In this document: positions 37,973-38,305 of the stretch, piece after piece
Layout of the letters: each line of letters begins with the position of its first letter
Numbering within the stretch: the stretch's first letter is position 1
Notes under the pieces: model-generated
Told to the model about the DNA's origin: nothing
Database searches by the model: none
Seen by the model: the letters and a program-made list of their open reading frames with translations, nothing else
Translations under genes and position numbers: made by a program
Assembly: GCF_000027125.1 (NCBI RefSeq)
Contig: NC_017626.1
Length of the DNA: 64,000 nt
Reading direction: 5' to 3' (one strand)
From: Escherichia coli 042
Lineage (GTDB): Bacteria > Pseudomonadota > Gammaproteobacteria > Enterobacterales > Enterobacteriaceae

Positions 37973-38305
37973 CTGAAATCTCTTGGTTTATGTTGTCGTC
38001 AGGCTCATGCCGGAGCAGGGTGATGAGCGGTTATATTTAGTGTGCGAATAATTTTGCATGTAAATGCAAATGAGAAATATACGCATTCATATTTGGCGTG
38101 TAAACCAAACAAAGAATGTCTTTTCAGCGAATTCGCAGGCAGAAATGGGATTAATGGCGATATATACGGCAGCAAAACGATTTTTTGCTTAAGAAATCGT
38201 GAGTTAAGGTTGAAAGAGCAGGTTTAACTCGACCATACTCTATACTCGCAGTGTGGCGCGGCGTAGCATGGCGCAACGCATGGCTATTTGAAAAAGGAAA
38301 ATGTC

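Follow-up and report, generated by a model that had tools for sequence, protein, structure and literature searches.

A probable Fur operator beside an incidental palindrome in the fhuE promoter of Escherichia coli 042

The AT-rich stretch at 38040-38110 of the window, meaning the whole 64-kb stretch of E. coli 042 DNA analysed here, is very probably the fhuE promoter with a Fur operator at 38063-38087, which consists of two dimer sites offset by 6 bp, while the 14-bp palindrome next to it is incidental. The direct basis comprises a matrix score, conservation both across species and within E. coli, and published Fur sites mapped onto the window; from these we infer the transcription start, the occlusion mechanism and the binding of Fur in this particular organism. 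A preliminary description of the same DNA had proposed a possible Fur operator within 38040-38110, and this is borne out by the matrix match, the conservation and the published K-12 site. It was also right about base composition, as the G+C content of 38040-38110 is 33.8% versus about 52% for the window. The stretch is intergenic, located between fhuE (minus strand, ATG at 37970-37972) and hinT (plus strand, GTG at 38306), an arrangement read from the annotation of complete E. coli genomes, of which 5425 out of 5426 are nearly identical here. The closest of these genomes reach 99.0% identity over 801 bp and 99.3% over 10 kb, which places the window in an E. coli/Shigella-type lineage outside that set. 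The features are collected in Table 1.

Table 1. Features of the fhuE-hinT intergenic region and the start of fhuE, in window coordinates; allele counts are exact 30-mer matches across 5426 complete E. coli genomes
Feature	Position	Strand	Basis or remark
fhuE start (37970-37972) and nonsense codon 5, TAA (37958-37960)	37958-37972	-	Sequence comparison
Weak extra Fur-like site TGTGCGAATAATTTTGCAT, including the palindrome left arm	38041-38059		5.6 bits in the window, 7.4 in K-12, 5.7 in CFT073
30-mer with the palindromic allele	38053-38082		Exact in 416/5426 genomes (7.7%)
30-mer with the non-palindromic K-12 allele (TGTTT)			Exact in 2558/5426 genomes
Imperfect palindrome TGCATGTAAATGCA	38055-38068		Right arm in operator, left arm in hypervariable patch
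Degenerate hexamers TGTAAA-TGCAAA-TGAGAA at the TR4 position	38059-38076	+	O157 array alignment
Operator 30-mer	38060-38089		Exact in 4594/5426 genomes (85%)
Window equivalent of the MG1655 Fur ChIP-exo footprint	38061-38093		Gao 2023, supplementary file 3, peak P31
Second, weaker Fur site, 6-bp offset	38063-38081	-	4.5 bits; with the core forms the 25-bp block 38063-38087
Core Fur dimer site, 9-1-9 type, AATGCGTATATTTCTCATT in fhuE sense	38069-38087	-	13.8 bits, best of the window
Predicted -10 TATATT, inside the core Fur site	38076-38081	-	Consensus scan
Predicted -35 TTTACA	38099-38104	-	Consensus scan; invariant or at least 90% conserved in 51 sequences
TR4 MLVA reverse primer GCCACACTGCGAGTATAGAG	38238-38257	-	Exact, 0 mismatches, 0 expected by chance

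The Fur matrix was built from 20 K-12 Fur sites that were footprinted, gel-shifted or strongly predicted, with coordinates from Tables 3 and 4 of Chen et al. 2007 (PMC2189734). The coordinates were converted to NC_000913.3, the DNA was fetched and the sites were shifted by no more than 5 bp to align them in a symmetric 19-bp matrix, from whose training set fhuE was left out. The resulting consensus is AATGATAATCATTATCATT with an information content of 19.7 bits, and the training sites scored 8.0 to 28.2 bits in leave-one-out. A scan with a position weight matrix, the check suggested in the preliminary description, ranked AATGAGAAATATACGCATT (centre 38078) at the top of 63,982 window positions. 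Its score lies inside the leave-one-out range and was reached or exceeded in 69 of 5000 dinucleotide-preserving shuffles of the intergenic region (p ~0.014), although it marks a site of medium strength when set against the 20-28 bits of most training sites, such as entC, gpmA and ryhB. Weaker matches stand in 6-bp phase with this core, one centred at 38072 (the second site of Table 1) and one at 38084 (1.7 bits), and the union 38063-38087 is the conserved block described below, in agreement with a two-dimer architecture. All centres from 38051 to 38071 scored negative.

The caution in the preliminary description that the match to the Fur consensus is only partial was justified for the classical consensus GATAATGATAATCATTATC, to which the core matches at an unremarkable 11 of 19 positions. 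Counting matches to this consensus was discarded as non-discriminating, since 322 19-mers in the window are as good or better. To the 9-1-9 single-dimer consensus AATGATAATnATTATCATT the core matches at 14 of the 18 specified positions. The matrix alone is not specific either, as none of the six other window matches of at least 10 bits coincides with a K-12 ChIP-exo peak. Three matches of 10.5-11.6 bits lie in AT-rich DNA at 42418-42526, just upstream of ndh (start mapping to ~42507), where the MG1655 ChIP-exo list has no Fur peak, and these are probably false positives of the matrix in AT-rich DNA. Further matches of 8.7-13.0 bits were observed at 57869 (within ymfA), 58247 (at the 3' end of potD), 57685 and 3200, again with no MG1655 ChIP-exo peak.

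The fhuE Fur operator is already known, as it was predicted in 2007 and later mapped by ChIP-exo, and the window carries the same sequence. Chen et al. (PMC2189734) predicted a fhuE Fur site of 12.4 bits at 1160880 of U00096.2, which falls on window position 38078, the very centre of the best matrix match, 106 bp upstream of the ATG. For this conversion, the fhuE ATG at 1161551 in NC_000913.3 was equated with 1160774 in version 2, K-12 and the window being free of indels relative to each other here. Gao et al. 2023 (PMC10164565, supplementary file 3) assigned to fhuE the MG1655 Fur ChIP-exo peak P31 at 1160863-1160895 (U00096.2), whose window equivalent (Table 1) encloses the core site and lies 89-121 bp upstream of the ATG. 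The coordinate system of Gao et al. was confirmed by their efeU peak, whose coordinate equals the version-2 coordinate in the table of Chen et al. In W3110 and CFT073 the ChIP-exo peaks are 13 bp long and fall at window 38065-38077 and 38061-38073, respectively. They are thus shifted toward the palindrome, and Fur may contact the DNA further downstream than the matrix suggests.

Fur ChIP-exo peaks at fhuE were reported in 8 strains, including MG1655, W3110 and CFT073, and RNA-seq put the rise of fhuE after fur deletion at 5.0 log2 units in MG1655 and at 3.0 to 8.4 in a further seven strains (Gao et al. 2023, PMC10164565). The window shows no difference from K-12 over 38059-38094, so that it represents the same locus and sequence as the published K-12 site (PMC2189734, PMC10164565). 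Fur binding and Fur control are therefore established, from the published strains, for sequences identical to the window over that interval. What distinguishes the window from K-12 is TGCAT in place of TGTTT just outside the footprint, and a stop at codon 5 of fhuE. A second MG1655 Fur peak, P32 (1161165-1161198, version 2), was assigned to hinT under both iron conditions (Gao 2023) and corresponds to window ~38363-38396, inside hinT; no site of at least 5.6 bits is centred in that interval, the nearest one scoring 7.2 bits at centre 38425.

Conservation between species delimits the same element. Using the FhuE protein as query and one genome per species, 53 loci were collected from Escherichia, Citrobacter, Klebsiella, Kluyvera, Raoultella, Leclercia, Enterobacter, Buttiauxella, Pantoea, Rahnella and other genera, the best of them, in Escherichia, at 98% protein identity, and a promoter alignment was made of 51 sequences, with 48 distinct cross-species sequences. 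The core 19-mer occurs unchanged or with one base different in all 48 of these, across the range from Escherichia to Pantoea and Rahnella, and this includes genera in which FhuE shares no more than 57-68% identity with the query. The two Mangrovibacter loci have another Fur-like 19-mer in its place, scoring 12.0 and 15.3 bits. Two blocks of columns stand out across the 51 promoters as invariant or conserved to at least 90%, namely the predicted -35 and the stretch from 38087 to 38063, AATGCGTATATTTCTCATTTGCATT in fhuE sense. The latter, 25 bp long, is the union of the two phased Fur sites and includes the predicted -10; on its downstream side conservation falls off immediately past 38063, beyond which no column of the alignment reaches 90%. 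In several genera, a second strong Fur-like site of 13-17 bits was observed ~75-110 bp nearer to fhuE, for example AATATTAATAATTATCAAG in Citrobacter and TTTGATAATGTCTTTCATT in Leclercia and Lelliottia, and this site is lacking in Escherichia.

The predicted fhuE promoter has 10 of 12 hexamer matches and a 17-bp spacer in the consensus scan, and both of its hexamers are conserved across genera. The literature search returned no experimental fhuE transcription start. Resembling typical Fur-repressed promoters (Chen 2007, PMC2189734), the core has a 6-bp-phased partner and would overlap the predicted -10. The strong dimer site would cover the predicted -10 hexamer, so that with plentiful iron Fe2+-Fur on the operator would block RNA polymerase and repress fhuE, while with scarce iron Fur would come off and the promoter would fire, giving in this genome a transcript with a stop at codon 5. 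This occlusion mechanism is suggested by what Chen 2007 (PMC2189734) summarised on Fur-repressed promoters, together with the overlap of the core with the predicted -10.

The DNA immediately downstream of the operator is variable within E. coli. The left arm of the palindrome, TGCAT (38055-38059) in the window, is TGTTT in K-12 and TATAT in CFT073 and is replaced by extra TGCAAA hexamers in O157, and all three of these variants show Fur binding and Fur-dependent fhuE repression in Gao et al. 2023 (PMC10164565). TGTAT, TGCTT and a 1-nt insertion occur in other sampled genomes, bringing the left arm to at least 6 alleles in E. coli. The palindromic form represents just one of many alleles, and Fur regulation persists in strains that carry others. 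Its two arms are neither both kept nor co-varying, the left one being hypervariable without covariation.

This hypervariability has a known counterpart in the O157 MLVA locus TR4, whose unit is TGCAAA and whose primers are given in PMC2246123. Both the flanking reverse primer and the repeat unit were found at the same intergenic position in the window, and the left arm thus falls within a locus already known to be hypervariable. Allowing up to 3 mismatches, the forward primer printed for TR4 in PMC2246123 finds no match; on visual inspection it looks similar to GGTGATGAGCGGTTATATTTA at ~38020-38040, and the printed form may be a misprint. At the TR4 position there are 4 TGCAAA copies in Sakai and 7.3 in cattle strain 136, and the O157 arrays align onto window 38059-38070. 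Compared with TR4 of O157, the window has one perfect TGCAAA between two degenerate copies instead of a tandem array, and Tandem Repeats Finder reported nothing in 37950-38320. Several O157 RefSeq records carry a 'hypothetical protein' annotated across the TGCAAA array, which in strain 136 is WP_137049512.1, ~66 aa as judged from the coordinates.

Could this hexamer patch, which includes the last base of the left arm and the spacer, be a working extension of the operator, onto which Fur spreads from the core as in hexamer-array operators? The hexamers are in 6-bp phase with the core, CAT repeats in the same phase recur in Citrobacter, Leclercia and Buttiauxella, the CFT073 and W3110 ChIP-exo peaks are centred at 38067-38071, and there is a weak site at 38041-38059. 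However, the next phased site, centred at 38066, scores -8.7 bits, the expanded TGCAAA arrays of Sakai and strain 136 contain no additional Fur site with a positive matrix score, the MG1655 footprint stops at 38061, and no column past 38063 is 90% conserved. Outside Escherichia the weak site itself is not conserved, and the ChIP-exo footprint does not reach it. An extension of this kind is accordingly judged unlikely. It is more doubtful still that the patch, through its SNP alleles and its 1 to 7 TGCAAA copies, tunes the Fur repression of fhuE or the production of its mRNA, for which the sole hint is the strain-differing effect of fur deletion on fhuE, namely 8.4 log2 units in Sakai (4 copies), 5.0 in K-12 and 3.0 in CFT073 (Gao 2023, PMC10164565).

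The 14-bp palindrome that the preliminary description had pointed out does exist as a single copy in the window, with the coordinates one position beyond the 38054-38067 given there and with imperfect symmetry, 6 of its 7 pairs being complementary (T-A, G-C, C-G, A-T, T-A, a G/A mismatch and T-A). A GTAA spacer separates the 5-bp arms TGCAT and ATGCA, and a longer inverted repeat with 7-bp arms, TTTGCAT-GTAA-ATGCAAA, spans 38053-38070. Read in fhuE sense, the palindrome directly follows the core site as its next 14 nt and stands 83-96 bp ahead of the fhuE ATG. Symmetry of this quality is not beyond chance, since the window has 100 14-mers in which 6 or all 7 pairs are complementary, versus ~86 expected by arithmetic under uniform base composition; another one is located at 38125 in the same fhuE-hinT intergenic region. 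Inverted repeats with a 4-bp spacer number 103 with 5-bp arms and 12 with 7-bp arms in the window. The right arm ATGCA (38064-38068, plus strand) is the only part of the palindrome within the conserved block and the only arm inside the published ChIP-exo footprint, the left arm and the spacer being outside the block. The palindrome is therefore incidental and no functional unit. Its right arm would be the outer end of the second Fur site, and its left arm would belong to the hypervariable patch at the TR4 position, presumably just downstream of the predicted -10 and roughly at the expected transcription start, and would in this lineage merely chance to complement the right arm.

A role of the inverted repeat in the fhuE mRNA, as a 5'-terminal hairpin that would stabilise the transcript or influence its translation, is very improbable. 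The window allele does give a 7-bp stem of -5.3 kcal/mol (z = -1.97), placed directly after the predicted -10 and near the likely transcript start, but 10 of 200 shuffles fold equally well and the K-12 and CFT073 alleles are unfolded (0 kcal/mol). In the alignment of 51 sequences, 71.7% of cells pair versus 72.1% in shuffles, and covariation was never above controls. With alleles that do not fold and with no covariation, a hairpin in RNA or DNA was rejected.

Still less credit is due to the palindrome itself as the Fur operator proposed in the preliminary description, with one dimer sitting symmetrically on TGCAT-GTAA-ATGCA. Its place in an AT-rich promoter region and the right arm within the ChIP-exo footprint speak for it, but the matrix gives -18.4 bits (centre 38061) and -12.4 bits (centre 38062) on the palindrome axis, the arms point outward relative to a 9-1-9 Fur site, and the core is the adjacent 38069-38087. 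Moreover, the left arm differs in K-12, CFT073 and O157, all of them Fur-bound with fhuE repressed, and the palindromic allele is carried by a small minority of E. coli genomes (Table 1). Least plausible of all is an operator for another dimeric regulator, which has the dyad symmetry as its only argument, whereas there are 100 instances of such symmetry in the window, E. coli strains vary in the left arm, Fur is the sole regulator given for fhuE in a table drawing on RegulonDB (PMC4145685), and the palindrome is unlike the CRP, TyrR, PurR and ArgR boxes (compared by eye with consensus sequences).

The nonsense codon that the preliminary description had noticed in fhuE is real. Codon 5 is TAA versus CAA in K-12 and E2348/69, and the product reads MLST, a stop and then FNRDNQQQTTSKPSLL onward in the window versus MLSTQFNRDNQYQAITKPSLL in K-12. 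The next in-frame ATG, GTG or TTG is located at 37843, past the signal peptide. The same CAA to TAA change was found in 3 of the 5426 complete E. coli genomes (ET76, EC6 and ES1). In ET76 it stands on another N-terminal haplotype (QYQAITK versus QQQTTSK in the window), suggesting that the nonsense codon is recurrent or was moved by recombination. PGAP rescued the ET76 fhuE with a start at Ile-15; the window has Thr at that codon and thus no start of this type.

As the preliminary description had supposed, promoter and operator are intact despite the nonsense codon, the operator having the K-12 sequence within an intergenic region that differs from K-12 at few positions. Regulatory DNA that is whole ahead of a gene stopped at codon 5 is in keeping with a recent inactivation and needs no special explanation; it is not evidence of selection maintaining the regulation.

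For annotation, the operator belongs at 38063-38087 and not on the palindrome, and beyond annotation the importance of the finding is little. It is a minor curiosity that a Fur operator overlaps, at its downstream edge, with the O157 typing repeat TR4. Should the patch tune fhuE after all, a typing VNTR would be a strain-specific regulatory dial.
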